A DNA stretch of 63,253 bases, counting the filler, from Psammoneis japonica (Eukaryota), in assembly GCA_008632985.1 (NCBI GenBank). It is 10 parts of 10 records of this genome, joined end to end, with 100 filler letters (N's around TTAATTAATTAA, not from the genome) between each part and the next. Parts side by side here need not be neighbours in the genome. Positions count along the whole stretch, not along the records: positions 40,905 to 46,713 come from QPGO01000560.1; 9 more parts are not named here. One strand, 5' to 3'. Positions within the stretch are counted from its first letter, which is position 1; each line of letters opens with the position of its first letter. Below the pieces are notes generated by a model. The model did no database searches, was not told the origin of the DNA, and saw nothing but the letters and a program-made list of their open reading frames with translations. Made by a program: the position numbers and the translations under genes. Positions 6,519-55,700 of the stretch are shown here, in pieces.

Positions 6519-6519
6519 G

Positions 6520-31179: not shown

Positions 31180-31273
31180 TTTCCCGAGAAGTTGACATTC
31201 AAATGCAGATGGGCAGGCAGACTGACAACAATTGTTTCTGGTGCTCTTCCGCATGATTTCCATGCAATGACTC

Positions 31274-34561: not shown

Positions 34562-34799
34562 TGTTGTAATTTATCCTTCTGGTGACTATTTCAGAGCCAC
34601 CTCAGTCCTCTAAGGTCTGATCCTGAGGCTAAAATAGACAAGCTTGTTATCACAATGCTTTCTAAGAGTTAAAAGAGAATAATGACTGCTTTCATCGGCA
34701 GCTTCAGTGCCTCACGTAGAGCACATGAGCGCTGGCGCATGCGTCTTCTTCGCGCCATCTAATTTCGGTGTTTGAACTTTTAATTCACCATTTCCAACA
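34562..34799 (-). repeat. 3' LTR (238 bp)
   Basis: Aligns without gaps to 39959-40196 with 8 mismatched positions. Confidence 0.97.
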
Positions 34800-37700
34800 C
34801 ACTCCTGCTGACCAACGACACGATTCTTGCCATTTCCAAATTTGACCATCTCAGGCACTTGGATGTTCATGATGGCTTGACGATCAGAAATGAACTTTTT
34901 ACCAACCACTGGTTTGGTCATGCAATCTGCCATCATCTTGTCTGTTGGGCAGAACTTAATCTCAAGTTCTCCTCGCTTGATGAGGTCAGTGATGTAAAAA
35001 TGCTTGATGTTGAAATGCCTCGTGCGTTTGCCCGAGCTGGCCTTTCCATTTTGTTCTAGTTTCATGCAACTTTGATTGTCTCGATGCATGATGTTGCGCT
35101 CGACTTCAAAACCTTGAGCTTCAACAAAACGCTTGGTCCAAAGGACCTTTTCCAAAACATCGTCTCCTGCGATGATCTCTGCTTCCGTAGAACTCCTGGT
35201 GTTGATCTTCTGCTTCGTGCTGACTGATGCAATGACACCTTTTCCAAGGGTCATGGTAGAACCTGTGTGACTTTTACAGTCCGGATGGACTGCAAATGCG
35301 GCATCCGTGTGCCACTCGATGACAACTTTGTCTCCAGCCGACATGACTGCGACATCAAGCTGGGTTGTCTTGAGGAAATTCATGAGCCTCACCAGCTTTG
35401 GCCAATCTGATTCGCTCAGATCCTTGACCCTGGTAGAGAGAGAAGCAATGCCAGGCTGAATGTCCTGTCTGGCTCTCTTGCACACAAACATGCCCTTCAT
35501 CACAAAAGTGCAAAATGCTTGAGCATGCTTGAGATCTAATTTCTTGGCTGTCTCATCCACCTTGTTGAGCTTCTCGCTCCACGGGCAATCCACGTCACCC
35601 GACAATTCTTCTGGGAATTTCTTGAAGAATTCCTTGACCATTTCTTGCACATGAAGCACCATGTCAACTTGCAATGCTCCTGGAATGGAGCAATCTAGAG
35701 TTATGGCTAGACAGTCATGCCTCTTTCCACGCGTGACTTTGACCTTTCCGATCTCATCCGCACAAGTTTTGTCCAACCAAATCTTGAATTCATCGTTGAC
35801 CTTGCTGTCAACATGGCTAGACTTCAAATCGTCCACATGCCATGTCACCGTGTGTTGTTTTCCATTCACGATGTGGTTGGCGACACATGGATCATGAGGA
35901 CCAATCTCAAATCCGATTCCTTCGATGTCTCTGCGGAACTTCTTGCAACAAAGAATGGAAGACACCAGCATTCCGTAGAGTGCCTTCAACATTTCAACGT
36001 AGAGAACCTTGTGTTTGCCTTCGTGCACGACGCAGTCCTGGCAAGTGTCTGGATCCAATTCCAGCAACATGTCCACCATCCTTCCACTGATCTTCATGAT
36101 GATCTTTTCATCCTTGACCTCGATGTCCGTTTGCACAAATGCATTTGGAATGTCTGCCATCATAACGTCTCTGCCTTGCTTGGCATCAATCACTCCTGCA
36201 ATGAGAACAGATTCTGTTGATGCTGTCGGACTGGCGGTTTCATCTCGGTCCATGCACTCTCGTTGCGTGCTTCCGTTTGCACACAACCTTGACTTGATTC
36301 GTCCATCTCTCTTCTCTGTGAGAAACATGAGGCTCTCCATGGCTCTCTTCCTCTCCAGTGGAGTCATGTCCTTGATGCAAATGGGTTTGAAAACCACTCT
36401 ATCATGGATTTGCTTCAGCTCTGACACTGCCGACTTGTGGCCTTCTTCTCCAAACTTCTGGAGTCCTCGTGCCAAGCTGCAAGTCTGAATAAATTGGTGT
36501 GCTTCTTCATCAGTGGAAATCGTGCTAACCTTTTTGTTCCACTGGCACATTGTCATGGCCATGATTCTGGCCGTCTCTAAGCTGCATGCTTCTTCTTGTG
36601 AATGGGCTTGAGTCTGCAGATGGCATTGGCAGTCTCCCAATCTAACTGGAGGTTTGAGAGTCCTTCCTGCCCTGGATGTAGCAACAGGCTCTTCTTGGAC
36701 ACTTTCTTTGGTTTCACTCTGCTCCTCTCCAGATTCGTCATCAGATTCCAGGTCTTTCATTTCGTCGATGATCTCTTGCACTTCCAGAGAGTGTTCCTTC
36801 TCTTGTTCCAGCCTCTGTTGTTCATCAATGTGGTCAATCATGTCATCGATTTCTTGTGAGATTCCGCTGCCGTCTGATGGTTGAGAACCAACTTCGTCAT
36901 TGTCTCCGAGATGCTCATCATTGGAGGTTTCTTCTTGAGTCTCGTCTTGTTGTTCACTGATGTAGCTGGCTTCTTCATCCAATTCTTGTTCCCGAACTAT
37001 GTCTTGCAGCTCTTCTTGACTAACTCTGTCGCAGTCTCCCCAGCCTAGCTCTTCTTCCTCATCATCTTCAGTTTCAATGTCTTCTTCTAGATCACAATCT
37101 TTGTCTTCAAATTGATCTTCATCACAATCCACTCCTGCAAGCCAAGCACCGTCGCACAAAACAGTTCCAGTGCGGTTCTGAATCTTGAGACCATTGGGCA
37201 TCTTGTTCATTTCAGCCAAATGATGAACCTGCTTTATGATGGCGGGAGTGATGGGCACAGGGGTGACCTTGCGACGAGTGATCTTCTTGCCGGTTTGCAA
37301 GTGCAGCAACTCATGTCCAATCTGGTTGCTGTCGGTGGGGCGCAAACAAATGCAATCCAAGGTCCGTGACTCTTGAGTGTTCTTGGGGTCCGGGTCGTTG
37401 TGAGCTTGCACACAAGTGCCGAACGTGATCTTGCAGCTCTTGTCATAGTCTAGATTCTTTTGATGGAGAATCATTCTTGGACTGCAATGTTTGGAAACGC
37501 CGTGCTTGGCTGGAAAACAATTGAGCTTCTTAGCAGCTTCGGTGACCATGACTTCAACCATGAGTTTTGGTAGATGCTTGAATGGCAGCTGATGATGGAC
37601 TGCCCTGGCACGTTCTTGAATGACTCGGTTGTTTCTTTCGGCTTCTGGGACATGCTCCTGAGCATTTGTGCAGTTCACCTTGAGATCAAACTTGTCTTCT

Positions 37701-39856
37701 AGTGCATTCCCAATGGGCCTGAATTCGTTGTCGCAATGAATGCGTGTGACCTTCAAATCGGCCTTGTTGTAGACTCGCAGCACATCTTCCAGAGCTTCTT
37801 GATGAGTTGGTTGGGTCAAGTCCTTGAGCGGTTGTGCCGTGTGATAAAAAATGTTTCGTGACACTGTGGTGAGGAATGGCAATCCATTCACCTTGAGGCC
37901 ATCCAGGCAAAGAGTGACCTTGTGCTGTGCTGCAATGAGCTCCTTCGGGATCTCTGTGCAGTCTTCTACAACTGGGTCTGGCTTCTGCCTTGTTGCCTTG
38001 CCTTTTCGACTTCCAATGTCTGGTCCAAAAATCTTCTCGGCCAAATCTACGTCCTCCATTGTGATGGGATTGTTCTTGATGCTGTTCATGCGAATGATGG
38101 CCTTCAGATCGTTCACGGTTGGGTTTCCCAACGCTTGCAATGGTTCCCCAGCCCTCTTGGCTTTCTTGAACTGTCGTGGAGTGTAGAACTTCTTGTTCTC
38201 TTCCACACTCTGCACAAATTGGAGCTGAGCTCCAGTGTCATTAATCTTGGGCTTGTAAACGTGCAGCCCTTTTCCGTCCTCCTCGAACCCAACCTTCTTG
38301 TTGGGGAGATGAACGGTGAATGCGTTGTCTTGCTTAGAATCACTTGTGATTCTGTGCTTCTTCTTCATGTCAGAGCAAGCAAAAATGTTGGTGATTGCAT
38401 CTGGGTTAAACCAAGTCTCACCAAACCCTGGCACTGTGGCCTTGTGTGTCGTGACCAGGACTCCGCCATTGGTGTGCAAACGCATGGCTTCATCCGACGG
38501 ACGGATGTCTGCAACGAGCTTCTCATTGCAGAAGATTGTGGTTGTGGACTGGTTGTCCAATAAAATCCAGTCTCTCATGCTGCCAGATTGATCCTGGTAG
38601 AGAGATGCATCGATGTGCGTGCCAGCCCATCCTGAAACAGCAGATTTTGTTCCAGTGGATTCTTTGGCAGAAGAGTTGGCTGCACTGGCATCGTCACTTG
38701 CTTGAGCGTTGCTTGCTTCTTGCTTGGCTTTGGCCTTGTTGATGGCCCATTCTGCTTGAGGTTTTCCTTTCCTTTCCCAGCAATTTTTGGAATTGTGTCC
38801 AGCCTTGCCACAGCAGCAACACTTGCCTTCTAACTGAGCGAAGGACAGCGCAATTTCTTGGTTTTCTTCTTGTTTCTTGGAGTCAGAGTTGTTGTTTCGA
38901 TTGTTCCTGTTACGGTGGTTGTCAGGCTGACCAACGTAGTCAAAAGTGTGGTTGCTCAACACCGTGTTGGCTTCCGTAACAGACTTGGGATGTTGGTCGT
39001 TCTTGAGGGACTGCTGAGTGTTCAATCCTGTTAGAATTGATCCGCACTTGCACTGATCTGCATTCTCCAAGTGCATGTAACCCATCAATTGGCTGAATGC
39101 CTTTTCTTGACACTTCTTGATGGCATCCGCATTGTGCTCGTCACATTCTGACATGCCTTGCACTGCCTTGGTGAGGACAATTGGTCCTCCAATGTGAGAC
39201 TTCATGATGTCCCTTGCAACCCTGAATCTCTTGGTGCAATCTTGGAGACTCTCCTTCTCCTTCTGCTTGGTTTCTAGCACTGCTCTCATTGAATCTGAGA
39301 TGATGGCCATGTCATGCCTGTGCTCTTGGCAGTTCAATGCATGCTCCTTAATGGCCTTGAGCAACTCGACAGGATCGTTTTCAATTTTGGCTTGGAAGTC
39401 GGTTCTTGCTTGAATCTTGTTCTTCATGGCCTTGGAGCATCTCTCCCAGAGCAAAGCACAAGCCTTGACAAGGTTGTTCTCATGAGTTTGGGTCCTCTTA
39501 ATGTGAGCATCAAATTCTGTCTTGAACTCAATTTCATGCTGTTTGTTCAATGGCACGTCCACCTTGTCATCTCCAGTCAAGCTGACCTGCAAAGTCGGCT
39601 TCTTAGAACTCATGTCACATGGAGTGAAAGTGTTGAGTGCAGTTGCAATGTCATTTCCAAACTCATGAGTCTTCTTGATGTAGTTGATGATGAACTCAGC
39701 AGCAATCTGAAAATCAGATGCTTGCTTGGCACTTCCAACATGATGGACATGATCATTGATGCCCTTGTTGCTTTGCTTGCCACTCTTGTTGCCCCTTCCT
39801 GAGGGTCCTCTTCCTTGGCTTCTATTGCCATTTCTGCCTTTGCCTCTTCCACTCAT
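34712..39856 (-). CDS. Copia gag-pol polyprotein, open but heavily Tyr-to-Cys/His substituted
   Basis: Zn knuckle CCCCGKAGHNSKNC, protease WILLDNQST, integrase IHCDNEF and HVPEAERNNR, RT ADIPNAFVQ and TWHVDD, RNase H WHTDAAFAVH and SSTEAE. The first ATG is at 39856. Confidence 0.93.
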   Translation of the reverse strand: MSGRGKGRNGNRSQGRGPSGRGNKSGKQSNKGINDHVHHVGSAKQASDFQIAAEFIINYIKKTHEFGNDIATALNTFTPCDMSSKKPTLQVSLTGDDKVDVPLNKQHEIEFKTEFDAHIKRTQTHENNLVKACALLWERCSKAMKNKIQARTDFQAKIENDPVELLKAIKEHALNCQEHRHDMAIISDSMRAVLETKQKEKESLQDCTKRFRVARDIMKSHIGGPIVLTKAVQGMSECDEHNADAIKKCQEKAFSQLMGYMHLENADQCKCGSILTGLNTQQSLKNDQHPKSVTEANTVLSNHTFDYVGQPDNHRNRNNRNNNSDSKKQEENQEIALSFAQLEGKCCCCGKAGHNSKNCWERKGKPQAEWAINKAKAKQEASNAQASDDASAANSSAKESTGTKSAVSGWAGTHIDASLYQDQSGSMRDWILLDNQSTTTIFCNEKLVADIRPSDEAMRLHTNGGVLVTTHKATVPGFGETWFNPDAITNIFACSDMKKKHRITSDSKQDNAFTVHLPNKKVGFEEDGKGLHVYKPKINDTGAQLQFVQSVEENKKFYTPRQFKKAKRAGEPLQALGNPTVNDLKAIIRMNSIKNNPITMEDVDLAEKIFGPDIGSRKGKATRQKPDPVVEDCTEIPKELIAAQHKVTLCLDGLKVNGLPFLTTVSRNIFYHTAQPLKDLTQPTHQEALEDVLRVYNKADLKVTRIHCDNEFRPIGNALEDKFDLKVNCTNAQEHVPEAERNNRVIQERARAVHHQLPFKHLPKLMVEVMVTEAAKKLNCFPAKHGVSKHCSPRMILHQKNLDYDKSCKITFGTCVQAHNDPDPKNTQESRTLDCICLRPTDSNQIGHELLHLQTGKKITRRKVTPVPITPAIIKQVHHLAEMNKMPNGLKIQNRTGTVLCDGAWLAGVDCDEDQFEDKDCDLEEDIETEDDEEEELGWGDCDRVSQEELQDIVREQELDEEASYISEQQDETQEETSNDEHLGDNDEVGSQPSDGSGISQEIDDMIDHIDEQQRLEQEKEHSLEVQEIIDEMKDLESDDESGEEQSETKESVQEEPVATSRAGRTLKPPVRLGDCQCHLQTQAHSQEEACSLETARIMAMTMCQWNKKVSTISTDEEAHQFIQTCSLARGLQKFGEEGHKSAVSELKQIHDRVVFKPICIKDMTPLERKRAMESLMFLTEKRDGRIKSRLCANGSTQRECMDRDETASPTASTESVLIAGVIDAKQGRDVMMADIPNAFVQTDIEVKDEKIIMKISGRMVDMLLELDPDTCQDCVVHEGKHKVLYVEMLKALYGMLVSSILCCKKFRRDIEGIGFEIGPHDPCVANHIVNGKQHTVTWHVDDLKSSHVDSKVNDEFKIWLDKTCADEIGKVKVTRGKRHDCLAITLDCSIPGALQVDMVLHVQEMVKEFFKKFPEELSGDVDCPWSEKLNKVDETAKKLDLKHAQAFCTFVMKGMFVCKRARQDIQPGIASLSTRVKDLSESDWPKLVRLMNFLKTTQLDVAVMSAGDKVVIEWHTDAAFAVHPDCKSHTGSTMTLGKGVIASVSTKQKINTRSSTEAEIIAGDDVLEKVLWTKRFVEAQGFEVERNIMHRDNQSCMKLEQNGKASSGKRTRHFNIKHFYITDLIKRGELEIKFCPTDKMMADCMTKPVVGKKFISDRQAIMNIQVPEMVKFGNGKNRVVGQQECVGNGELKVQTPKLDGAKKTHAPALMCST

Positions 39857-39958
39857 GACAAAAAGGCAAAGCAGCAAAACATCTCACACACCGTGTGGAT
39901 GACTCTTTTCTTTCTCACTTTCTTTTCACAGCTCTCAGCTGGATTGTTCTCTTTCAAC

Positions 39959-40196
39959 TGTTGTAATTTATCCTTCTGGCAACCATTTCAGAGCCACCTC
40001 AGTCCTCTAAGGTCTGATCCTGAGGCTAAAATAGACAAGCTTGTCATCACAATGCTTTCTAAGAGTCAAAAGAGAATGATGACTGCTTTCATCGGCAGTT
40101 TCAGTGCCTCACGTAGAGCACATGAGCACTGGCGCATGCGTCTTCTTCGCGCCATCTAATTTCGGTGTTTGAACTTTTAATTCACCATTTCCAACA
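39959..40196 (-). repeat. 5' LTR (238 bp)
   Basis: Partner of 34562-34799. Confidence 0.97.
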
Positions 40197-41423
40197 GAAG
40201 GTGATGCGTGGTTTTATTCGACAGAGAAACGAGCCATGGCAATTGTGATGGCTTACATTGAGTCTTGCAGATGCAAGGCAGTTTATAACACAGAAACATG
40301 TGACTCATTTGCCTCATCTGCTAAGCCTGTGCAACACATTTAGATGTTAAAGTCGGGGCAAATTATGCACAATGCCAAGTCTCCAAAAACAGCACAAGAG
40401 TGCAAGCCCAAAAGAAGAATTGGCTTTGCAACTTGTCATGGGAGTGTAGAGCTTGTTTTTCTGGGGCATCATGTCTCTGTTGTTTTCATGGAGTGGACAT
40501 TCGCTGGTGTTGTTGCCGCCAACGTGCGAGTTCGCCTTGACAACATGTTGCACTGTATTCTGAGAGTTTGGAATGAAAAAACAACTTGCACTTGCATTGT
40601 TCTGTCACAACAGAAATGTGTGAGCTGTCCCTGGCCCTTTTGGAGAAATGGGGCAAGTGAAAGAGGAGCTACAGAAAGACACGGACGACGCCATTTTGAT
40701 GGATTGTCGTCAGGTGGTGTGTCGAGAGGAGTCGTGATGGAGTGCCGCTTTGTGTTTTTGCACTGCGTCCATGTGGGAATGTACGTGCTTGGCTCTCGTG
40801 TAGTNNNNNNNNNNNNNNNNNNNNNNNNNNNNNNNNNNNNNNNNNNNNTTAATTAATTAANNNNNNNNNNNNNNNNNNNNNNNNNNNNNNNNNNNNNNNN
40901 NNNNTTCTTTCGGGGTGTTCTGTCAGACTTTTGAATTGGCACATACACACATTAGAGGCACAAGCAAATTTAATGATATGTTGAAGCCTCAGAGACCCAC
41001 ATAAATTTATGTTCTATGTAGACCGCGTAGATTGTGTACCGGCGGAAAATCCACCGCCTGTCAACTCATCAGCAGTAATTCTACGCAAATTCTACTTACA
41101 CCTCACACACGCACACACGCCTGCACAGTCTAATAACCACGCACTACGTGCGTGAGAATTCTTCATCACTGTGCAGAAGACTCCACTGTCATCCCATGTA
41201 AGCAGAGTAGTCGCAGTACAGGGCTCGCTGATCTAATTGAAATCGCGCAGCGCACACATCAAGTTGCGCGCAGACTTTGGCGGCCACAGAAGGAGGAAAG
41301 GTGGTGCTGGGTGGGCGGGCACACGATTGATGGAAAGGGTGATGGGATGATGTGGGCAAGGAGGGGGGCAGCAGAGCAAGGTGACAGGCTTGTTGCTGTG
41401 GTGTGGCAAATGTTGAGTGTTGG

Positions 41424-44400
41424 TGCAGCATGCAGTATGCGACTGTTATATGCATATTCATAATTATATATTATTTATATATCAATCGTACCACAGTCGT
41501 GGATGCGTACAAAGGACAGAACGATCACACAGAGTTGAAAATTGCAAATACGATCGATTGACGATGTTGACATCTTACGTGTCAATAGCAATCGTATTCG
41601 GACAATCTGTTGTCACGAATATATTCTCCGAAAGGCCTTTTGTCTGCAGAAGCAGTGCAGAAACTTTAGGCCATTGAGAACTCGTTCGGAGAAACCAAAA
41701 ATCACAGAGCAAAATTTAATCTCATAATTTTCACTTTTCATACTTGATTCTACTTTTGTTCATGCTCGTTCTTCGAGCATGGTGCATTGTGTGTACACAC
41801 CACAGAAGGTAAAAACACGGAAAATGAAAATTTTAACTAATGTGCCTTTGTAAATTCTTCCATGAGCAGGTGTGAAATGCTTCAGTTCTGCTGGAATCAA
41901 TTTCTGAGCGGAAGCAGCTCAATCTGAGCAGTACCTCAAGATGGAACCTTATTTTTCGTCTACAAGACAAGAGGATTTGTTCTAATACGATCCATTCCAA
42001 GTGTCCCAGGACCAAGGACTGTACAAGAGCACAGCATTATCGAAGTGTCCACACCAAGTCATGGTTGGATAGAATTTCAAGTCTTGAGTCGATCAGGTCC
42101 GAGAAATACATCTACTGTTCAAGGAGAGACTATTGGAGAGTTTTATGAGACCAAATTGATGAGCCTCGAGTCCAAAGGGCAGGAAGGAACCATTGGAAAG
42201 TACCTCAAGAGTCTCTTATCTCATGTCTTTCCAAGAATTGCACTTCAGAATCAGAACCATTATTTTCAAGATGATCTGAAGAAACCAGAGCTGCTTAGTC
42301 TAACAGCAAGAAAGCCTCTGTTGGACCCAAGAGGTCAATGAAGAGCGTCCACATGACCCTTCAATTGATTCTAAGTTGAATCTAGCGGGAAACCGAGCCG
42401 TGAGCTATCAGCTATCACTCGCACCGCAAGGATGGCAGCATCAGCCTACTGTCCAAAACACTGAACTGTTGGAACTTACCTTTGACGAGCTGATTGAGTT
42501 TTGAGTCGTCTAGAAGTCGTTCATGACGTCTATGACAATGAACCATATCAAATCAGGCTCTGATAGCGGAATTGATTCCAAAACCAAAATGGTTCCAAAT
42601 TTGGTTCCAAAAATGGTCTCCTGTATGGTGCCTGAATAATCCAAAGTGAACAAAAGGTGCAATCTTTGAAAAAAGAACACCTGCATCACGGATTGAAGCT
42701 ATTCTGAAAATGAACTAGTGAAAGAACGCCGTGGACACATTGAGCGTGATCCGAAATGGCGCTGTTCAAATGGCAATCGCACGTGGCATCGCGATGACGA
42801 AAATGCCGCTCGCAAAAAGGAGTTGAACGTCATGAATGATCAGACAGTTCAAAAAAAAAAACTCAAAGCGAGTTCCTCGAACAAAGAAAAAGAGCATAAG
42901 GGCAAAGAATTGGATTCTGATGCCCTCAGTGAAGAAAATTACCAATTTGATCGGATGATCCAGAGTGAATCCGAGGAATAATTTGGGTCTATTCAAGAAT
43001 TATATGCTCTACTGGATATTAGGAAGCCTAGAAAAAAGGCAGAAATAATTCGTGCTAGTCCAGGAGTCATCATTTATATGAACACTTCCTTGGGAAAGGA
43101 GAGAAAAAAGCATCTACGTGTTCCTATCGACAACGGAACATCGTCAACCACAATTTTGCGCAAATTTGTGCGAAAGTTGAGAACACAAGAATCCGCCACC
43201 AAAAACTTGGAAAACCAAGGGTGAGCTCTTTACGACTGACAGTAAATGCCGAATTCAGTTCTCACTGTGCGAATTTAAGACATGCTGATGTTCAAACAGC
43301 ACATGTTGACAACAACAATTCTTCTTCAAGTCCATGTGATGTGATCATGAGACGCGACTTAATGTCCAGTCTTGAAATCACAGTGGACTTGCAAATGAAG
43401 AAATCAAAAAGGAAGAAGCAACTGCATCTATGAAGAATGTTGATCCACTCTTCGAAACCGATGTTTCCAGCGACGTCGTGAATAGAGTTAATGACGGAAC
43501 CAATGGTCCTCGACTCACATTGTCTCACGCTGCTAATCTCAACAATGTGACAGCTGCGGCAACTTATCTGACTCCAGAGGAGCAGAAGCTATTGATCTTC
43601 CCTTTGAAAAGATTTAAATCTCTTTTCGATGGTTCTCTAGGCGAGTGAATCGGAAAACCTCGCAGTGAAAGCTGGCTCGAAACCGCATCACGCGAAAGGT
43701 TTCCTGTTTCCACAAGCCTTGGAGGCAACTCGTAAGGAGATTGAAAGGCTCTGTAAGCTAAAAGTCCTAAAGGAAAATAAACTGTTCTGAATGGACAGCT
43801 CCAACCTTTAAAAAATAGAAAAATGGTCGAAGCTCGGTTTCTGTCCGACTTTCGTGAACTGAATAAGAGGCCAGCACGCATGCCGTATCCTCCACCAAAT
43901 ATTCAGAACACACTTCAGAAACTAGAAGGGTTCATATATATGACCTTACTCAATTTGAATGTGGGACACTGTCACATCAAATTTAAAAAGCACATGTCGT
44001 GCCAACACGAAAATCATGCCGTGGGGAGAAAATAAGTGCTATGGACTTCCTATGAGAAGCTATAGAGCCCCAGATATTTTTAAACAACACATGAGTGAAC
44101 TCATAACAGGTTTGAAGTTGTCAGAACGACTGTATATGATCATTTATGCCTGACAAAAAGTGACTTCAAAATATCACCTGTACAAGTGACAGCTTAATAC
44201 GGCATTCAAACGACTAGAACAGTTGCTTAGAAGGTTAACAACAAAAGTCCTTCACTGTTTAACTTGAAATAAACTATGAAGACTTCCATGCATAACGACA
44301 TGCATTCGATTACAAAGAAAATGGAGGTGATTCAAACAATCGCAACACGAGAAAAACGTAAAGAACACTACGACATCTCATCGTTATATGTCACTGCTAT

Positions 44401-46348
44401 CGAGACATGTAGTCTCAACGATCTCCTGTACAATGCTAGCCAGATTCACCTCAATGAAGGTCAAATGGCAAAAGTACAAGTACGGAATGAAAAGTCTCCG
44501 AAAATATGGAGCGTATCAAATCAAAAACTATGTTGTTGTCATACACGAATTTCAACATTATACGTTACAACGGAAAAAAGAACTTCTGTCCATATTGAAA
44601 ACACTTATAAAATTCCGAAATATGCTGTTTGGCCAACAGATTAATATACACACGGATTATAAGACACAACGGACAAAGTCATACGTTGGTGACTTACAAT
44701 AGAAAACTTCAGTCCCGAAATATAAAATGCATCGAGGGCAAGGCGAATGTCATCGCGATACTGTCGATCGACACGATCAGCCGACTTACTATAAAAAAAA
44801 TTGAATCCTACAACAATGTCCTACCGTTAAAACGGGATAAAGACATTTCCCTCCAAATTGTCGGACGCGACACATCATACGAACACTTTTCGTGGAGGCG
44901 AGCGAGATCTAAAAATGCTCATGTCATAAGGATAAAATCGCCTTATTAAATTACGGTTAGAAAAAAACTCTGTGACAGATTGGTACACGACATTACAGCA
45001 CCCACTTCACACTGGCAAAAGACAATCTCACAAACACCCGTACGGTTGTACTGTACAATGTATGAGGCAAGACATAAATAACTTATCATGTCGACACACG
45101 AGATGTGCCAAAGATTCAGAAAAAAAGAAAAGAAAAATGGACATTTATCCACTAGTGCACGAAAGCAGTGCCTTCGGAATGACAAAATGACACTGGCATG
45201 TCAGAAAGAAACGTCCAAATAACGATTAAAATCCAACTGATAGATGGTTGAAGTACAAAAAATCCATAATGGAATTCATAACCATCACAGGATTGATTGT
45301 CAAGACGAAATGGTCATATCCTTGACCATCGTTAATTACCACTTAAGAAACGTGGTAGTGCAGCAGAGCAATGTAGCACATGATATGAAGTGAGCCCACC
45401 AAACTGCACGAAATCCACAAGCAAGTAAGTGAACGCCAATTAAGAGCGTACACATCGAGTGCTGGGCAAAATGCTATGTACAATCGACACCATGAAAGAA
45501 CAGCAGGACAATTGGTCCTTGTGTTCACATGAATAAAAGAACGTCAGAGAGAATGCTTGACGCAATACCACATATATAGAGAGAGAGCATGAGACAAAAG
45601 ACATGCTGGAACATTATCAGCAGTAGCATTTGCAGTACGTTCTACGTATCATACTACTGCGCAAGCTACACCTGGACAATTAGTCTTCAGAGACATAACA
45701 TTTAACATCCAACATGTCACAGACTGGAAATTCATCCAGCAGCGCAAACAAAAAATCATAAATAAAAATAACGCTTGAGAAAATACTCGATGTACTCCTT
45801 ACATGTACAGAATAGGAGAAAAGACACTGCTCAAGAAAGACTTGCAGAAAATGGAACGGCCCTATGCTGGCCTATATATATAAAACAATGACAGTCATTG
45901 CTAATGGCACAATGCAGTTGACGTGGAGACATTGTTGACACTGTCAATGTCCTTCGAATTATTCCACTTAACGAATAACTCTAATGTGCAATTAGGGAGG
46001 CAAATGCAGCATGCGACTGTTATAGGCATATTCATAATTATGTGTTATTTACATGTCAATCGTACCACCGTCATGGATGCGTACAAAGGACAGAATGATC
46101 ACACAGAGTTGATCGGATGTCGAAAATTGCAAATACGATCGATTGACGATGTTGACATCTTACGTGTCAATAGCAATCGTATTCAGACAATCTGTTGTCA
46201 CGAATATATTCTCCGAAAGGCCTTTTGTCTGTAGAAGCAGTGCAGAAACTTTAGGCCATTGAGAACTCGTTCGGAGAAACCGAAAATCACAGAGCAAAAT
46301 TTAATCTCATAATTTTCACTTTTCATACTTGATTCTACTTTCGTTTAT
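41424..46348 (+). mobile_element. Decayed Ty3/Gypsy LTR retrotransposon
   Basis: Direct repeats of about 330 bp (about 41430-41763 and 46005-46348) with the PPT AGGGAGGCAAA before the second. Fragments occur in PR-RT-RH-IN order: IDNGTS; RFLSDFRELNKR..PYP..LQKLEGF; KELLSILKTL..FRNMLFG..HTDY; AFAVRSTYHTT..ATPGQLVF. Many frameshifts. Confidence 0.9.
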
Positions 46349-47849
46349 TCGTGCCCTATGTATGTACTAAGCGCTGAAAAAGAAGATGTGTTATGACTTT
46401 GTCGTTGTGAAAATTATGAGCTAGTTTAGAGTAGAGAAAATGGGATCGTGCGAATAGGGAATCTTGCCAAATCCCTATTCGTTCGCATTTGGATCGTATC
46501 AAATCGATCGTGCGTTCGCATTATGGATCGTGCGAATCAAGCCATCACGCGCTATGCACGAGTGATGTCATCGTGTGGAATCACGCTACCATCGTGGGCC
46601 AGACGACGGGCTAGTGTGCTTCACACGGATGCTCTCTTAGCATCCTTCTGGAATTGCCTAAGACCTAGAGCCACGCCCTCCTGTGGTCGTGCTTCCCAGG
46701 TACGTGTTAACAANNNNNNNNNNNNNNNNNNNNNNNNNNNNNNNNNNNNNNNNNNNNTTAATTAATTAANNNNNNNNNNNNNNNNNNNNNNNNNNNNNNN
46801 NNNNNNNNNNNNNAAGGACCAATGTGATGGATCTGCACACCTCCTGTGCAGCCCTCCAGTCACCCAAAGTCACTCTCTTTTCATTGTGTGACACCAGCAT
46901 AAACAGGAGGGAGAGGCTGGCACAGCACATGCAAAACTTGGCAACATCAAATCATCCTTTCCACTGCAGTGCACCCCCAGTGAGGAGCTTTTTGCTGCTG
47001 AAACAAAAATGTTGCTGCAGCAAGAGTTGGTCCAGCAGTGCAGGGTCAGCTGACTCAAGCAGGGCTTGGGCAAAAATGTGAGCTTTGTGCCTCAAAGCTG
47101 TGGCAATCTCCTTTGCCCCTTTTGTCACAGTGCTGCCTCTGCACATTTCTTTGTGGAGGGTTGTTCTCCTTTGGTTTTGGCCAATTGCATGTGGGTGTGA
47201 CATGTGCAGCTGGCAAAATGTGGGAACAGCTGCAGAACGTGGATTTTGCAGGTTTGAAAAGCTGGTGGCTCACTCTGCGTGTGCTGTGTGTGAGTCAAAT
47301 TTTCTTCTGTGGGCTTGTTGCATGATTTGGAGGGAGCCCTCATGCTTCTCGCATGCAGCTGGCAACTGGCAACATGGGAGAACAGCTGCAGAATGTGGGT
47401 TTTGCAGGTTTGAAAAGCTGGCATTTCACTTCATCTGGGACGCCAATAATCTGGGTCTGACAGTCTGCCACAATCTGGGCATTTGTTGACTTCAATCCCA
47501 GATTATTGTCAACTTATGAGCCAAGTCTTTCCCCAAAGATAACATGAGAACTACATGAGTTTATAAGCTTCTAAAGCCTGAATCGCTTCCCACTTTTAAG
47601 TGTGATCATTCTTTGCACACAATGGTGACCTACACCCCAATTGACATTTGTGGTTTCTTGTTCCTTAAACACATTTGTTTCCACTTATAATCCACACTCC
47701 TTGTCTGCCATTTCATCCTACATTTCATCTCTTTGCCATGTTGTTTTCAAATCCAAATGTCCAACTGCCACACGTTTTTGTATCTAAACCGCTTTGCAGA
47801 AAGTTTTTTTTTCATTTTTCCAGATTTTATCGTTTGCTGCAATTTACTT

Positions 47850-48986
47850 TTACACACCAGTTTGGTTGGTTGCCATGGCAGCAATTGCTCCCGCTCCGTT
47901 GCCGGCTGCCACTGCCTGCAATGGCAGGTCCTCACCCATCGGCACTGCCCATCCTTCCTCTCTCTCCTTTCTCTTTTCCTCTCTTTTGCGTTTCTTGTTT
48001 TCCTCCCTAGACAAGTTTGTCTTCTCTTGCCTTCTCTCCTTGAACCATGCACCAAATCCATGGTTGTTCTCTCTGTCTTTCACCACCCACTGACACAGAT
48101 CATTGCACTTCTTGATCCCATCCTTGCTCCATCCTTGGTTCCTCTTCACCGATTCCCCCGCTGCCTGTGCTGTGCACTTTGCAGGAGCAGCATCTTGCAC
48201 CGTCAGCTTCCTTCTCCTTGCAATGTTGTCTTCCTTTTCCAACTTCTCTGCCGTGTCCATCACCTTGTTGCAGTGGTTCAAGTGCACTGGCAGAGCAAAT
48301 GCCTCCGACAAAATGGAAAGCCACTCTTGGAGCATGTTGGTTGTGCTTCTACCAAACTGTGCTTGTCCCACCACCATTGGCACCACAGTTTCCAAGAACC
48401 ATGCACATGTGTCCTTGTCAGCTCTTCCCTTTGTCAAATCTTTGTACTCCACCAGTGATCCCTCTAAAGCAGCAACTGCACAGATAAAATCAAAGGCAGT
48501 GACACTCATCCCATTGGACAATCTCCTCCAACACAATTGAAGGCACGCACACAGCTGCTCACCTGTCATTCTCCTCCTAATGTTGTCCTGCACATTGTTC
48601 CTCTTGCGGTTGAGTTTGGTTCTGAACACCTCTTTGCATTCTTCCCAGAACGCCTCCGGCAAAGACACCATGCTCCTCAACTCCTGCAGAACTGTTTTCA
48701 TGCAATCTTCTCCTGCGGCCAGTTCTCGGTCGAAGATTGTGAACTGGCAATGTGGCCAAACACTTTCATTGATTGCCTTTGTCAGCATTGATCCTGTCAA
48801 TTTCTTGCCCACCGCTGGTGCATGATCCAACACAAGACATCCCTCCATGGGAGTCACCACAGAACTTGAATCCCCCCCATGCACTGGAATCTGTTTAATT
48901 CCCCATGTTCGTTTCTTTGTGCATTGAACAAGGCTGCCACCGCAGGACTCATGGTGACTTTGCGTGACACCACACAGGTAAATCAC
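47850..48986 (-). pseudogene. Repeat-associated hypothetical protein (SEAFAL...GWSKDG motif), with a probable GT-AG intron near 48563-48478
   Basis: 378-aa open frame with LSEAFAL..LN, KCT and GWSKDGIKKCNDLC..V.KDR. I associate this pattern with DNA-transposon accessory ORFs from recall, not from a search. The DNA is TpA-depleted. Confidence 0.5.
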
Positions 48987-49635
48987 AGGTCGTTAGTTCA
49001 CCAGCAACTCTTTGTCATGCCCTTTCTCAACCTGACTTACCACTCGACGTTTCACTTCCTCCCTCTGTCACTCCTGTTACAACTGTCTCCTCCATCTTTT
49101 TGTCCTTCCCAATGGCTGCTCCTTGTTTTGAACTTCCATCCTTTCCTGCTGATTTATGAACAGGTGATGTGCGAAATGAAGGCACTTTGCATGTGATTTT
49201 CTCTGTTTTGTCATTGCTCGCGTATCCTCTCTTGATTCAAACAGGTGTTTGTATCAATTTTGAGTGCTCATTTCCAACCCCATGTTTGAATTTCTATCAA
49301 TCTTCCACTGTTTTGAATTGTGCACCTTTGTGAGCCAATCCAATCCCTCAATGAAGATCACAATGTGTTTTTAAATCAATGTCAAAAACAACATGTCTTT
49401 TGTTCTTGTCTTTGTGCATGCATTGTGCCTGTTTCCTGACACAACATCAGTTTCATTTGGTTTAAAAAATTGTGTCAAACCCCCTGTTCTTTCACACAAA
49501 TCTGTGTCTCTCACTGCCCTTGTTTATCCAATCATGTCTTAATCGATCATTCCCTCAACTTCCCTGATGCCATCTCTCTCCAACTCCTCTCTGTGTCACC
49601 CAAACTGATCCAGTCCCCCTTTTAATGTCGCATGT

Positions 49636-50544
49636 GTGTGTGCACATGGGAACGCATCCATCCACAATTCCACACATTCTCTTTTGCTCCTCCAATGGTG
49701 CCAAAGCATCACATTGTCACTAAGATGTGGTTGTTGTGAATCGTTCCCATCACAGGAATGCGCGTTCCCTGCATTGCAGCAATGTGCCACCCCCATCGAT
49801 GATCAAATGGGTCGTGTTGCTGGTGGCGGTGTGGAATCACATGGTGGTGCAGCAAGCTTTGCCTTCTCCGATGAGGTTTTTTGTCACCCCGTTCTCTTTG
49901 CTGCTCACACTCGAAGCCCTTTTAACATCATCGACATTGGTGGTGGTTGTGCCGGTTTTGCAATTGCCTGTTGTTTGCTTGTTCCTTCCTGCAATGCCTG
50001 CAGCATTGAGTCACACCATCCTTGTCATGATTTGGGCTCTGAGTGGTGTCGTGCTGTCTGGCCCAACTTGCCCGGTTGTTGTCCTACCCTGATCAATCAG
50101 GATTTCCTCTCTGAAGATGATTCAGTTCACCGTTTGTACCATCAGAATAACACAAAGATTTTCTTCAACAATTTCAATGGGTGGATGCTTTTTGATGACA
50201 TTGGGACACAGAACCAACTCGAGGAGACACTGTCCAACAAGTGTCCTGAAGGTGCCATCGTCATTTCACTGGACGTGATGTTTTGTGGGCACACCCACAA
50301 ATGGAGGCATGCAGCATTTTTTGTTCCTGCCTGTCCAGACAATCTATCATGGGGAGGCGGTGTCAACAGGCACCTGCTTCACAAGTGCACCAAGAAAAGA
50401 GATGGCACTGTCGAGCCAAGGCATTCCACTAGGAACAACCCAGGGACTGACATCAAACGAAAGTTCAAGCCTTCCAAAAGTTGGCAGCTTGGTGCTGTCC
50501 TTTTCCTTAACTTTTTTCTATGCAAGCAATGCAATGTCAATTAG
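49636..50544 (+). pseudogene. DOT1-like class I SAM-dependent methyltransferase ORF, hypermutated
   Basis: Ordered motifs ESHGGAASF, IIDIGGG, SIE, QDFLSED, TKIFFNNF and QLEE...EGAIVIS parallel the DOT1 motifs YGE, DLGSG, GVE, GDFLSEE, VIFVNNF and EGGRIVS. Confidence 0.65.
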
Positions 50545-52729
50545 CCATTTACACCAATTTACTTCCTGCCTTTACCAGCTTACAACTTAGCTAGTTTTGC
50601 AGTCCAACAAATTCTTGTTCGTGCGCTTGCCATGTCAAAATTATGTGCCAGACATGCCATGTTCCTTCAATCCAAATTGGTTTTGTCAGGCAAAGCATGG
50701 TGCAGCATTCTTGCATCAAAATCAAATGCAGTGCCTGCTTCTCCCACCAGCAATTGTTTTTCCAAACCCAACCCAACCAAGAGTCTTTTGTGTTCTTTCT
50801 CATTCAACGTTACCTGGCAACCATCCAGCCTTGTCTTGATGGCACCATTGTCCTCCGTTGTGTCATCAAGGAACAGAAACACTGTGAAAATTTTGTTTCC
50901 TGGAAACAATTCTGTTTCCATGTAATCGCAATGAATTTCCCCCTTTGACCAGAAGTTGGACCTTGAACTTGAAGCAGGAGCATTTGCTGCCATGTGCCTG
51001 CTTGTCTCTTTCTGTCTAAATCATCAGCCATGGGAAAGCCAGGAATTAAGTCCAACATTTTTTCTGCCAACTCAATGCCCTCCGCCTTGTCCTTTTTGTT
51101 AATGGCAAACTCTCTGACAAAACGGTGTCCTTCCTTTTCTTGTTTGCTGCTTGGTGCCTTGTTTGCAAGAGCAGCAATTTGTTTGAGCAAGGGTTGTGGG
51201 GTTTTGAATTTTTGCAAGTGGCCTTTTTTCCCTTCCTGATGCAAACTTTCTTTGCACCTGGCCGCCTTCCTCTTGACGACATGTGATTTCACTTCATGCA
51301 GGTGGGTTGGCAACTTGCCATGTTTCCGACATGAGGTTGTCGGCCAATGTGCAAATTTCCTGCATCCATCAACAGAACACTTTCACACCATTCTCTGAAC
51401 ATGCGGAATTCTGCCAAATCAAATGGGACTTAGTCTGTTCATCATGCAGAACGCACCCAATTCAGCGAACGACCTCGGCTGTTTCTTTCCCATGCAATCT
51501 GTGTTGCACACGGCATCTGTCGGGTGCATGGCAGACATTTCTTTTGTAAACAGTCCCATGTGTTATGATCTTTGACCATCTTTTTTCCTTGGTGTTTTCA
51601 TTCAATTGGTGATCCTGGCTGCCTCAAAGCTTAGACACACCTTTGCTTCCACACTGTCATGTCATGGTTGTGGTGTGTCCCTTTGTTTTCAACACCGCCC
51701 CTGACACAAAGGAACAGTCACTGTCCCATGTTCATTCCGCACTCATTGAGATTATGGTGTACAATGAACATGCGCAAATCACACATTTGTCTGTCAACCA
51801 ATCATTTTGGTGTCAATTTTTTATGAATTCACACAATGAGAGCATCTCATGCATTTGTCTTGCAACAAATCAATTTGGCAGCACTTTTTTATAAATGCAA
51901 TGAACAAAAGCCTTTACATTGTTGTGATGTGTTGTCAATCTCCCGCAGCAAACAGCATCCTCACAATTCTGGTCCAATCACTGATCAACGAATGTTGGTC
52001 AGTTGTCGGACACTGTTGGGGCATCGTCATCTCTCTTTTCCATGATGTGCCATTCCCTGTGTGAAACAACAACCTCATCATGATCCCACCCTGTAGAATG
52101 CTTGCCAACCCGTTGCAAAACGGCTGCCTCACCTGTTGTGCCATGTTGCCGCAATGCAACCAACGAATCTCATTTTCCTCCAACACATCGCACTTCTTTC
52201 CTCTGATGTCCTTCCACCCAACACAACCTGGTGTTGCTTTGCCACTGCCATGTCACACAAAAGCATCGACAACTGTTCCATGTGGCCTTTGCCCCNNNNN
52301 NNNNNNNNNNNNNNNNNNNNNNNNNNNNNNNNNNNNNNNTTAATTAATTAANNNNNNNNNNNNNNNNNNNNNNNNNNNNNNNNNNNNNNNNNNNNAACGA
52401 CGACGACGTTTTGGTACAAACACGTTGTTGTTTCCTGGCATTTAACGTGAAACCACTGACAGGGAAACTCGACTCTGATTTGAAACGAGCATACAAGTTA
52501 AGTTGTAGACTACAGTAGCATGCACGCCACACGCCAGCTATCACCGGATGCTACTGTAGCTCATACCGGTAGTGGAGGTCTGTTGATGGTTCCGTTTAGT
52601 TCATTTTGCCGTTCTGCGATCTGCTATGGGTCCCAACGCCATGCTTCCACGTGTAATCACAAACCCCATTTTTTACTTTTTACCAAAATGGGTCGGAAGC
52701 AGAGGGTTGCGTTAGGCACAGAGCTGTGA

Positions 52730-55700
52730 CTAAAAATCGTCCCTCATGCTTTCACGTGTGATGAAGGTGCTCCGCGAAACATCAGCTCCATTTTCAAATG
52801 CCCGACACCATGAACAATGCACACTGCCCCACTCCATTCTTGCCAGATGTTGTCTTAAAGGGTGGAAGACAGACAATGCTCACATCTTGCGCATTTTGTG
52901 GCTCTGGCTGGGGGGTCAAAGTCTGGCCAATTCTGCCAAAACTGTTGAGTTGAGTGGGTCATGTGGGATTCAATGCATGTGTGCCGGCAGACCACTGCAC
53001 GAACCACGCCACGCAACCTTCTCTGATGGTGTCCATCAAGAATGCCCTGTGGGTGTTCCCAGTTCCAACAAAAACTCAAGTTGAGCTGAGCAGTTTTTTT
53101 GGAGATCTCCAGGAGGCCGGGGAACAGTGCAGTGGAAATCAGCCAGAAATTGACAGAACGCGGTGGGCAACCACCACTTGAGAACACATGGTTGGCTTTT
53201 CTGCTTGTTGCACTCCTGCCAATGTCAGACAGGTTGGCTCCTTCCTGCGCCATGAACAGACCAAGACAGTGCAATGGCCAGTGTCACCATGCTGACACAC
53301 TGACAAAAATCTTGCCAGCCAGGAACATGCCGCCGTGAGATCATGATGCACTCACATGCACCAGGCAAAGGCGACCCAAGCTGTTGGAGCTTTGCGGCTT
53401 GTCGACTGGCACACATTTGGTCTTGCCATCTCTGAACTCACCACATGGCTTTCAAACACACCATTGCTGTTGCTGTCCACTGCTGTTGCCATCATGTCAA
53501 CCGGGTGCAGAAGCCAAAAAGTGAGCACAAGACCCGCAACTCAACCCAAGTCAATTTTGCCAGAGTTGCCAGGAACATGCCACTGTGATGTCATGCTGCA
53601 TTCACACTCACCAGGGAAAGGAGACCTGAGCTGTTGAAGCTTCAAAGCTTCTTGCTGATGAGCACATGTCTGGTCTTGCCAGCATCTCTGAGCTCACCGT
53701 GGTGTGGCTTGCAAACACATTGCTGTTGCTGTCAGCCACTGTCACCATGTCAACCAGGTCAGAAGCTCAAAAGAGAGCACAAGAGGACCTGCAACTCAAC
53801 CTGAGTTGTGAGTGCAAACTTGCCATGTTGTCCACAATCCTGCAACTTTGTCTCTGTCTGTCCTGGAAAAATGCCTCCAACCTCAATGTTCAACACAACC
53901 ACTCCTTCACACAAGCTGTCAATTGATTGGCCTCATGCACATCAAGCACAGGAGGATGATGACACTTGAAGTCCATGCCACCCAACACCATGTTGACTGC
54001 TCTGATGGCTCTGATGGCCCACACCATCTGACTCTGTCAATGAGTGGTCATTGTCAGGGCAATCTTTTCTCACATCATGCCCAACCTCATTGCATTTTGA
54101 CTTCATCATCCAATCTGCTTCTTCTTGCTCAGCCCAATGGGAACTGCCAATGTTGGTTCTTCAAGACATGCCACAGTCTTTGGTGCCTTCCATTGGCACC
54201 ACCACAGACAACTTGTGCCCTTTTTCATTCTGGGTGTCATCAGCACCCTTGCTGAACCCATCTTCTTTCCTGGCAACTTTTTCAGATGCAGGTGGGAATC
54301 TGTGTGACAATGGGCCCACAGAATTCCAGGTGCAAGTTCTGCAGCAAAAACGTCAGGTTGTGAGTGTGCCAATGACTGTCAACAGAAAGGCCAAAGAGGC
54401 CATGTTTTGTGGTTGTGTGAACTTGTTCATGTGCTCAAATCACACTGGCTCTTGTTTGCCCTGGGGTGCATTCTGCAAACATTGGAGAATGTGCTGCTGC
54501 CTGGGCCAATTTTTGTCACTCAAATTGACAAAATAAAAAGCCTTCAGCTTTGCAAAAAACAGGGAGCACAAATCAATTCTGTGGAAGACAGCAAGCAGAA
54601 ATGGCACATGCGCAATTGACACAGAGGGTGGGCTCAGGGAATTTTGTGAGCTGGCCTGACTCTCATCCTGAAACACAAGATGTTGAGTGCTTCTCTAAGG
54701 CCATCAACACACTGTCAACAACTCAATTGCATTGTCAACAAATGATGGTTGCATGATGACAAGACTGGCCACAAGAAGGACTCTGCACGCACCATGGCTG
54801 GATGCAAGTGCAGAACATGCCTGTCTTGTCTGCAATTGGAAATGGCAGCAACAACACCTGCCTGCACTGGAAATCCCAAGACAGTGGTGGGTGATGGCAC
54901 GGATCTTGCCACTCCCCACACCTTTGCTGTGCATGAGGCTGAAACTTGGGCATGGAGTCCATGGAAGCTGCAGAAAAGACATTCTGAATTTGTTGAAACA
55001 GACACAGCAGATGGCAAGGATGGAGAAGTGCTTGTCATGAAGGAGCTTTGCAACAAAATCTTGAAAGATGACATGACTTCAAAGATGCCGCATTTCTTGA
55101 ATGGAACAGAACAAAAGCCATCAAGGCATGCATGAATTTTCTTGTGAAGAAAGATGCGGACAGGGCACAGTGCTCTGATTTCATCGTAGCTTGTGCAACA
55201 AAACCTTTTCACAACCAGATGAAAAGAAAAAAAAACCACATTTTGACCATTGCTTCAACACAATGTTTCCTTGCCTCAAGCAGGGTCCTGTTCAGCCAGT
55301 CACCAGGGATTTGCATCAAGTGGGATGCCACATTTGATCTGGCTGAGAGAATGGTGGGATCAACCCAGATGCAGAAGAAAAAGTCAATGCCTCAGTGATT
55401 GTTTTTGGTGGATGTGGTGATGTCATTGAACTGCGCTTTTGTGCAGATGCAAAGTGATGACTTGTCCCAAAAGCTCAGCTGTTTTCTCCACAAATGTTGT
55501 GAATGACTTGGGCAGACTGACATTGAAGGAGTTCCTCATTTTGCACACTCCAGTGCATGCTGTCTGTTGTGTGTGTGGGGGGGGGGGGGCAATGACTGCA
55601 AAGCCTGTTGGTTTGCACAGTGCTGGCATGTGTGGAGGAGGTGCCTTTCAAAAAGACAATGTGCACAGACAAAAGAAAGTTTGCAAGTCTGCTCATGGAC

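Follow-up and report, generated by a model that had tools for sequence, protein, structure and literature searches.

TpA loss in repeat DNA of a Psammoneis japonica assembly follows a flank rule and probably reflects TpA-specific A:T-to-G:C hypermutation

Introduction

Defence against repeats by removal of a dinucleotide is so far known only from fungi and from one 2026 preprint on an alga. The fungal system, repeat-induced point mutation (RIP) of Neurospora and other ascomycetes, changes C to T at CpA, makes TpA and creates stop codons. The present analysis concerns a 63,253-nucleotide stretch of DNA, hereafter the window, from the assembly of Psammoneis japonica (GenBank GCA_008632985.1), and in particular two retrotransposons with long terminal repeats (LTRs) within it: a Copia element (34562-40196) and a Gypsy-type element (41430-46348). 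As in RIP, repeats in the window have been mutated in place, by transitions at one dinucleotide and on both strands, leaving dead transposons behind. The chemistry is nevertheless the opposite one: TpA is destroyed instead of made, no stops arise and open reading frames (ORFs) stay open.

The closest described system is that of Bigelowiella natans, in which, according to excerpts of a preprint, integrated giant-virus and virophage DNA undergoes TpA hypermutation (Mettrop et al., bioRxiv 10.64898/2026.01.13.699255). The same excerpts report that, in two integrated viral regions, 210 of 211 and 20 of 20 mutations arising de novo were A>G or T>C, all of them at TpA, and that the authors propose an ADAT2-like deaminase. 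The main text of the preprint gives no flank rule, with the words "context", "flanking", "tetranucleotide" and "trinucleotide" occurring 0 times, and a search of the full-text literature for TpA-restricted A:T>G:C hypermutation found this preprint alone. In Bigelowiella, so far as the excerpts describe it, as in the window, A>G or T>C at TpA gives TpG or CpA on either strand and leads to long-term TA depletion. The Bigelowiella process appears from the excerpts to be confined to foreign or repeat-like DNA. In the window depletion is regional, the TA odds ratio (rho) being 0.01-0.2 in depleted stretches versus 0.6-0.8 elsewhere, and Pfam searches with long ORFs gave no match that would mark the undepleted stretches as genes. 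The two cases differ in that Bigelowiella is a rhizarian alga, from a supergroup other than that of the diatoms, and in that its targets are integrated viruses, whereas LTR retrotransposons, a satellite and whole repeat contigs are affected here, with far deeper depletion (rho TA down to 0.01).

A preliminary description of the window, drawn from the sequence, had noted a 21-base segment that differs between the LTRs of the Gypsy-type element and had proposed a palindromic purine-TA-pyrimidine target, with CTA/TAG relatively resistant, pointing to an enzyme or defined lesion rather than general GC-biased drift. Here we show that TA sites are destroyed in the order RTAY >> RTAR/YTAY >> YTAR (R, purine; Y, pyrimidine), with CTAG almost immune and the extremes differing by at least an order of magnitude. 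We consider it reasonably probable that the 21-base difference is an early snapshot of TpA-specific A:T-to-G:C hypermutation of repeats, at a rate set by both flanks of TA.

Results

TA survival depends on both flanking bases

The window was cut into 500-base tiles, which were classed by local TA content as normal (17.5 kb), intermediate (23 kb) or saturated (18 kb). RTAY sites fell from 272 in normal to 43 in intermediate and 0 in saturated tiles, the mixed classes (RTAR/YTAY) from 454 to 209 and 17, and YTAR sites from 123 to 111 and 33. Depletion of the NTAN contexts is therefore very unequal (chi-square p 6e-17 for normal versus intermediate and 1e-20 for normal versus saturated tiles), in keeping with the preference put forward in the preliminary description.

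For the Copia element, expected counts were taken from a matched baseline comprising those 55 of 70 related metagenome Copia loci whose TA odds ratio was 0.55 or higher (196,231 bases, 10,633 TA sites). Observed over expected counts were 0/93.3 for RTAY, 43/157.5 for RTAR/YTAY and 35/54.6 for YTAR, corresponding to a survival of 0.64 for YTAR versus 0.00 for RTAY. Every RTAY tetramer was absent (ATAT 0/33, ATAC/GTAT 0/43, GTAC 0/17), and the mixed classes ranged from ATAA/TTAT (10/54), ATAG/CTAT (7/33) and GTAA/TTAC (9/39) to CTAC/GTAG (17/31.2). Among YTAR sites, TTAA was reduced to 8/21, with 18/24.4 kept for CTAA/TTAG and 9/9.1 for CTAG; together with CTAC/GTAG, these values bear out the relative resistance of CTA/TAG. 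The same order of survival, RTAY < mixed < YTAR, was found in each of the six TA-depleted contigs of the window, and the three undepleted contigs lay near the baseline shares.

Two of the 70 environmental Copia loci are themselves TA-depleted, namely L060 (odds ratio 0.12) and L047 (0.23). In L060, observed over expected counts were 1/38.9 for RTAY, 10/65.7 for the mixed classes and 5/22.8 for YTAR. The flank rule is thus real, strong and reproducible across contigs, and it is also present in at least one independent environmental element.

In a joint Poisson fit over Copia, L047 and L060, the log-likelihood was 84.4 when context was ignored, 128.3 with additive and 131.3 with multiplicative half-sites, and 135.7 when all ten classes were left free. 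A context-free description was rejected (chi2 102.6, 9 df, p 5e-18); multiplicative half-sites described the data adequately (p 0.18), and additive ones did so marginally (p 0.022). On either strand the 5' flank ranked A~G > T > C, making CTA/TAG the most resistant half-site; the half-site values were 1.44/1.90 for A versus 1.19/1.87 for G, with T after the target A at least as good as C. Further out, C at half-site -3 (equivalent to G at +2) was neutral (0.98). Among surviving TAs in depleted tiles and L060, half-site position -3 carried A at 0.66 and T at 1.43 of the baseline share (p 3e-15); part of this effect arises because a change at one TA site alters the flank of its neighbour (TATA to TGTA).

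Homologues polarise the change as TA to TG/CA

The gag-pol ORF of the Copia element (34712-39883, minus strand) spans 1723 codons and is open but dead, with zero RTAY sites remaining; the named relatives of its polyprotein are diatoms (Fragilaria, Nitzschia). No metagenome locus was closer than ~72% DNA identity to Copia, L047 or L060, and because relatives at the DNA level are this distant, polarisation was carried out through protein alignments. The comparison included 48 full-length homologues, ~54% identical in protein. Their composition (4.1% tyrosine, 2.7% histidine, 1.2% cysteine) is shifted in the Copia ORF to 0.8% tyrosine (Tyr), 3.7% histidine (His) and 3.3% cysteine (Cys). We defined as ancestral-Tyr columns those alignment columns with Tyr in at least half of the homologues. 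At 58 such columns, the Copia ORF presents 24 Cys, 19 His, 7 Tyr, 5 phenylalanine (Phe) and 3 other residues. This replacement of Tyr by Cys or His against the homologues sets the direction as TA to TG/CA, the reverse of RIP, and its extent (43 of 58 columns) constitutes a signature of the type described in Bigelowiella. At 21 ancestral-Tyr columns each, L060 has 11 Cys and 2 His, and a second, unrelated Copia-type element, represented by a partly mutated C-terminal reverse transcriptase/RNase H part on the contig designated S4 (20801-22606, plus strand), has 6 His, 5 Cys and 6 Tyr.

The 13 Tyr codons left in the Copia ORF follow C in nine cases and T in four, and none follows a purine, as had been described before. 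In 23 unmutated homologous ORFs, with 1092 Tyr codons between them, the preceding base is a purine in 46.7% of cases, which gives this absence a probability of 2.8e-4. HVDD in the Copia polymerase was considered as a mutated YVDD and ruled out, the homologue consensus being HVDD as well.

Both Copia LTRs lie on the minus strand. The 3' LTR in element orientation (34562-34799) retains zero RTAY sites, and the 5' LTR (39959-40196) presents four single TA-type changes relative to it, at CTAT, TTAT, TTAA and ATAA; one further site was changed differently in each LTR (GTGA versus GCAA). In all, 6 of the 9 differences in this pair are TA-type, and the non-TA differences in both this and the Gypsy-type pair are mostly CpG-type. 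The nine TAs common to both Copia LTRs (GTAA, TTAT, CTAA four times, ATAG, GTAG and TTAA) agree with those listed previously and include no RTAY.

Several further features of codon usage were observed in the Copia ORF. Where the next codon starts with A, the third codon base is C 52% and T 4% of the time, versus 27% and 20% in the 23 homologous ORFs, and the share of A-starting codons is unaltered (0.335 versus 0.340 in the homologues). NTA codons are down from 47 to 12 per 1000, with the gain mainly in synonymous codons: CTC rises from 10.4 to 19.7 and GTC from 15.1 to 20.9 per 1000, changes that TA>TG/CA cannot yield. This suggests that the Copia lineage purged synonymous TA while active and that its tyrosines were lost later. 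In L047 (2695 bases) the flank order is as in Copia, yet 9 of 19 ancestral Tyr are kept and 7 are Phe, with almost no Cys or His events. The Phe residues correspond to TAY to TTY, a conservative change that also removes TA, and L047 may represent an element escaping the mutator instead of being killed by it.

Alignment of the contigs of one sample to the contig carrying Copia returned 1775 contigs, 375 of them at a likeness of at least 99%, and 812 places vary between copies of the family; two further runs yielded next to no matching contigs. Of 40 rows of variable places, the 34 in which the depth of the other letters equalled the total depth were classified, a small and selected set: six have TA in the window versus CA/TG in the others, four show the reverse, and nine are CpG-type, eight other transitions and seven transversions. 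Some contigs of this sample join 34554 to 40195, skipping 5640 bases, which corresponds to a solo-LTR or empty-like form, and others run from ~40076-40143 back to 34708-34744, connecting LTR to LTR in the way that tandem or circular copies do. The mutated Copia family hence seems to be multi-copy.

The process is specific to TpA

In conserved A-starting codons, the initial A had become G in 5 of 11 cases when the preceding base was T, versus 3 of 172 when it was not (p 1.5e-5); the latter comprise 2 of 25 after A and 1 of 147 after C or G. Since A>G outside TpA is not raised, the process is TpA-specific and not a general weak-to-strong drift, and the T-dependence is again of the Bigelowiella type. 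ApA shows no depletion, its rho being 1.14-1.25 in TA-depleted regions, and dinucleotides that do not contain TA, AT and AA included, are close to their usual values. In the tiles, CG, AT and GC cores displayed no gradient by flank class comparable to that of TA. Together with rejection of the context-free model, the 3/172 figure upholds the earlier preference for an enzyme or defined lesion over GC-biased drift, which an equal rise of A-to-G outside TpA would have contradicted.

CpG is depleted along with TA in 28500-33000, 54000-57000 and 60000-63000 (odds ratio ~0.1-0.2), but its loss does not grade with R/Y flanks. GCGC is undepleted in saturated tiles (50 sites versus 48 in normal tiles), where TCGA is down to 0.14. 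The decay of CpG without a flank rule of the TA type indicates a separate process.

The Gypsy-type LTR pair captures the first mutations

The Gypsy-type element lies on the plus strand, with LTR1 at 41430-41763, an interior at 41764-46003 and LTR2 at 46004-46348. In the 5' LTR, the 21-base segment (41463-41483) has all seven TA sites present, in the order TTAT, ATAT, ATAT, TTAT, TTAT, ATAT, ATAT. In its counterpart in the 3' LTR (46037-46057) the three TTAT are unchanged and the four ATAT are rewritten by three A>G and one T>C, reading ATGT, GTGT, ACAT and ATGT in the LTR alignment; both segments are as first quoted, with 4/4 ATAT different and 3/3 TTAT kept. The whole pair differs by 12 substitutions (6 TA-type, 4 CpG-type and 2 transversions) and an 11-base indel. 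Five of the TA-type differences are changes in LTR2, all at RTAY and within 44 bases, and the sixth is LTR1's own change at GTAG (GCAG in LTR1, GTAG in LTR2). Of the 14 RTAY sites in this LTR, 9 are intact in both copies; within the Gypsy-type LTR alone the RTAY preference is not significant (5/14 versus 1/11 other TA sites, Fisher p=0.18).

Over the whole element, LTRs included, observed over expected counts were 82/81.4 for RTAY, 130/137.5 for the mixed classes and 50/47.6 for YTAR. As the element stands at baseline in all flank classes, the LTR differences are its very first mutations. The five early LTR2 changes (46010-46060) are clustered within 44 bases (permutation 41/2002, P 0.02), and fall on both strands, as three A>G and two T>C; the clustering hints at a patchy, local action.

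The Gypsy label given in the preliminary description is weakly supported: the sole family match in the interior is a sub-threshold one to RT_RNaseH (E 6e-5, 23.6 bits versus a cut-off of 24.8), and no ORF over 137 aa was found there. The LTRs are ~96% identical and the element's TA content is normal, yet no longer frame is open in the interior. Either a cause unrelated to the TA mutator disrupted the interior, or the element is non-autonomous.

Tyrosine codons report the altered strand

In a mutated Tyr codon, Cys (TGY) means that the A of the coding strand was changed and His (CAY) that the A of the other strand was. The base after the coding-strand A is always a pyrimidine, and the 3' neighbour of the other-strand A pairs with the base that precedes the codon. 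Pooling Copia, L060 and S4, ancestral Tyr after a pyrimidine yielded 29 Cys and 11 His, with 18 kept, and ancestral Tyr after a purine yielded 9 Cys and 15 His, with 2 kept. The 5' base affects the choice of His versus Cys (p 0.009) and whether a codon was mutated or kept (p 0.026), and Cys exceeds His at YTAY (p 0.006); the pooled tests were computed with and without L047. These results suggest that each strand is read separately as T-A-Y and that a purine at -2 has a lesser influence. Of the palindromic purine-TA-pyrimidine target proposed earlier, the flank preference therefore stands, as the complete loss of RTAY in Copia demonstrates, and the palindromic nature of the target is not established, given the asymmetry of YTAY products.

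Composition of the window and other features

The window comprises 10 separate contigs in descending order of size (6.9 to 5.3 kb), joined by N44-TTAATTAATTAA-N44 linkers at 6934-7033, 13838-13937, 20700-20799, 27505-27604, 34140-34239, 40805-40904, 46714-46813, 52296-52395 and 57854-57953, so that adjacency across a linker carries no meaning. The linkers were masked for counting; unmasked, they would contribute artificial TTAA sites. Dinucleotide content is extreme and regional. The TA odds ratio is 0.01-0.09 in 1-6000, 28500-33000, 54000-57000 and 60000-63000, where CG is low and CA/TG reach up to 1.5-1.9, and 0.6-0.8 in 7500-12000 and 15000-19500. Depleted stretches overall have a rho TA of 0.01-0.2, denoting depletion and not enrichment.

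Contigs S1 (1-6933) and S5 (27605-34139) are saturated, both with a rho TA of 0.03, and S5 has a rho CG of 0.15; the surviving RTAY, mixed and YTAR sites number 0, 6 and 11 in S1 and 0, 6 and 8 in S5. Contig S8 (46814-52295) is strongly depleted, with observed over expected counts in the same classes of 6/91, 42/153 and 25/53, and contigs S9 (52396-57853; 7/90, 25/153 and 17/53) and S10 (57954-63253; 3/88, 14/148 and 15/51) are depleted.

Contig S1 contains a 23-base satellite (1830-2112, 2812-4486 and 6536-6932, in both orientations, with ~64 copies in the main array) that is nearly TA-free and in which a CG column is turning into TG and CA; none of its columns was clearly an ancestral TA. 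The repeats that self-BLAST detected within the window were limited to the two LTR pairs, satellites and one duplication of 412 bases. Depleted DNA also presents long open frames (255-462 aa) on both strands, at 2421-4364, 47691-50544 and 58466-59854. Pfam searches with five long ORFs, three of them in depleted contigs (47850-48992, 49609-50544 and 58466-59854), returned no family match. Because TA to TG/CA removes TAA and TAG and makes no stops, depleted DNA carries long open frames, and these are probably not genes but frames open by chance in TA-free DNA.

Discussion

If TpA-specific hypermutation is the correct reading, it would act in place, and on both strands, on the repeat DNA of a diatom-type genome. 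The tight four-base rule points to an enzyme with a defined recognition pocket, for which the likeliest candidate would be a DNA adenine deaminase converting A to hypoxanthine, which is read as G. Each strand would be read as 5'-(R)-T-A-Y-3', with more weight on the pyrimidine at +1 than on the purine at -2. RTAY would then hold two good targets, the mixed classes one and YTAR none. Since a pyrimidine 3' of TA on one strand pairs with a purine 5' of TA on the other, the apparent palindrome would be a by-product.

Several points weigh against this reading. The strand-wise T-A-Y component draws on 40 tyrosine events, and of six polarised mixed-class LTR events two are for it (GTAA>GCAA, GTAG>GCAG) and four against (CTAT>CCAT, TTAT>TCAT, ATAA>ATGA, GTAA>GTGA). 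Product tetramers are inconsistent: with S1 excluded, saturated DNA gains 27 RCAR/YTGY versus 13.5 RTGR/YCAY per kb, and the intermediate gains are equal; CpG decay feeds the same products. An additive model predicts ~10.8 RTAY survivors in Copia, where 0 are seen (Poisson 2e-5); the under-prediction of RTAY loss indicates that both flanks matter. The survivor method requires a baseline, and the relatives used for it are ~54% identical in protein and probably from other species. Some of the TA loss in Copia appears to predate this copy and to have passed through selection, so that some survival values mix mutation with selection. Finally, none of the known TadA/ADAT-type enzymes compared below has this flank rule.

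The surplus loss of RTAY over the additive prediction is also what a symmetric, possibly dimeric, enzyme would produce if it read the duplex palindrome R-T-A-Y in the style of restriction-modification systems and converted either A. We hold such an enzyme to be unlikely, but it is favoured by the better fit of multiplicative than additive half-sites and by the occurrence of early LTR2 changes on both strands within 44 bases. It does not predict the excess of Cys over His at the half-good YTAY sites, and a strand-wise reader using -2 and +1 accounts for the survivors equally well. We know of no enzyme of RTAY specificity, a point on which no literature search was made. A target on the other base is less likely still: the T of 5'-R-T-A-3' could be modified, for instance by oxidation, and mispair, or be excised and misrepaired, giving T>C. 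TA>TG is T>C on the other strand, and the T-A-Y rule is exactly R-T-A on the opposite strand, so that the A-directed and the opposite-strand T-directed readings fit all counts equally. Positive evidence for a thymine target is nonetheless lacking, and the Bigelowiella authors, as excerpted, read their own events as adenine deamination, without biochemical proof.

Explanations that dispense with base modification by a dedicated enzyme fare worse. The WA signature of polymerase eta consists of A>G at both AA and TA, so that error-prone patch synthesis by such a polymerase would account for A>G at TA and finds a weak hint in the 2/25 changes after A versus 1/147 after C or G. Undepleted ApA speaks against it, as do the four-base rule and near-immunity of CTAG, which WA hotspots do not lead one to expect, and the nearly exclusive occurrence of transitions; we give it very little credence, and its context, like that of TadA, with which the preliminary description had called for comparison, does not match the flank rule. 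GC-biased gene conversion raises all weak-to-strong changes, whatever the dinucleotide. This process, drift, oligonucleotide selection or RIP read backwards (CA/TG to TA) could be entertained from two LTRs alone, which do not reveal polarity, but the homologues polarise the change as Tyr to Cys/His, A>G is not raised outside TpA, and dinucleotides without TA are near usual. The RIP signature is likewise absent, as TA is depleted, rho CA is 1.5-1.9 and the 1723-codon ORF is open, which is incompatible with RIP; undirected explanations can practically be set aside. It is also highly improbable that modified bases in silenced repeats (methyl-C at CpG, modified A or T at TpA) were misread in a flank-dependent manner by base calling. 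Regional coincidence of TA and CG loss would fit such an artefact, and the sole read set with this sequence may be the assembly's own source. The independent metagenome contig L060, however, has the same Tyr>Cys/His changes and flank order, misreading of TA as TG/CA cannot produce the Copia codon shift to CTC and GTC, the Copia copies differ among themselves at hundreds of places, and the excerpted Bigelowiella data include de novo events in mutation-accumulation lines.

The contexts of known editing enzymes can be compared with the TpA-specific process favoured here. ADAR editing prefers G as 3' neighbour and U or A as 5' neighbour, on double-stranded RNA, whereas in the window TAG/CTA is the most resistant half-site and ApA is undepleted. 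Fungal Tad2/Tad3 (ADAT2/3) A-to-I editing of mRNA, the ADAT-type activity studied in most depth outside tRNA, shares with the window an adenine target and the dominance of U/T at -1. As excerpted, it prefers U at -1, C/U at -2 and A/G at +1 (PMC9600606), hence Y-U-A-R with UAG and UAA frequent, and its substrate is RNA hairpin loops (PMC9600606, PMC11156358). Its flanks are thus the mirror image of those found here, the preferred class being exactly the one spared (YTAR), and it acts on RNA and not on genomic DNA; T at -1 agrees with the window, and Y at -2 and R at +1 do not. Native TadA reads U-A-C-G in a tRNA loop with a strict G at +2, and the evolved TadA8e is almost context-free, according to excerpts of PMC10586758. 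It resembles the process in the window in having T/U before and a pyrimidine after the target A, but the position equivalent to +2 is neutral here and T after A is at least as good as C. Amphioxus ADAT2 deaminates both A and C in DNA, in contexts given in the excerpted source as GAA and TCG (PMC10354150). Mutation of both bases would fit the joint loss of TA and CG, but these contexts are not TpA, and the decay of CpG without a parallel flank rule argues for two processes. APOBEC enzymes edit vertebrate LTR retrotransposons (PMC4866542, in excerpt) and, as in the window, leave context-specific clusters of transitions in retroelements; they act by strand-biased C>U on cDNA during reverse transcription, in contrast to A:T>G:C on both strands, also in satellites and whole contigs. 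None of the contexts compared equals R-T-A-Y, and a deaminase, if responsible, differs in specificity from all of them.

Through the flank rule, what would be an oddity of base composition becomes the fingerprint of an enzyme and could guide the search for it. The rule excludes both drift and biased gene conversion and argues against the tRNA-type ADAT reading proposed for Bigelowiella. It also offers a simple criterion for candidate enzymes, the comparison of RTAY with YTAR oligonucleotides, and can be applied to the published Bigelowiella mutations. If the reading is true, a natural motif-restricted A:T-to-G:C editor of double-stranded DNA would be possible, which may be of interest for base editing. 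For annotation, dead TA-depleted DNA keeps long ORFs, as the process cannot make stops, and Tyr-poor, Cys- and His-rich transposon proteins in diatom data would be its products. A wider reading, which we put forward tentatively and regard as doubtful when taken as a whole, is that diatoms carry a base-editing defence that reads duplex R-T-A-Y with a specificity matching none of the deaminase contexts compared, and that retrotransposon lineages are engaged in an arms race with its enzyme, in which active lineages would purge synonymous TA and change Tyr to Phe, much as phages avoid restriction sites.

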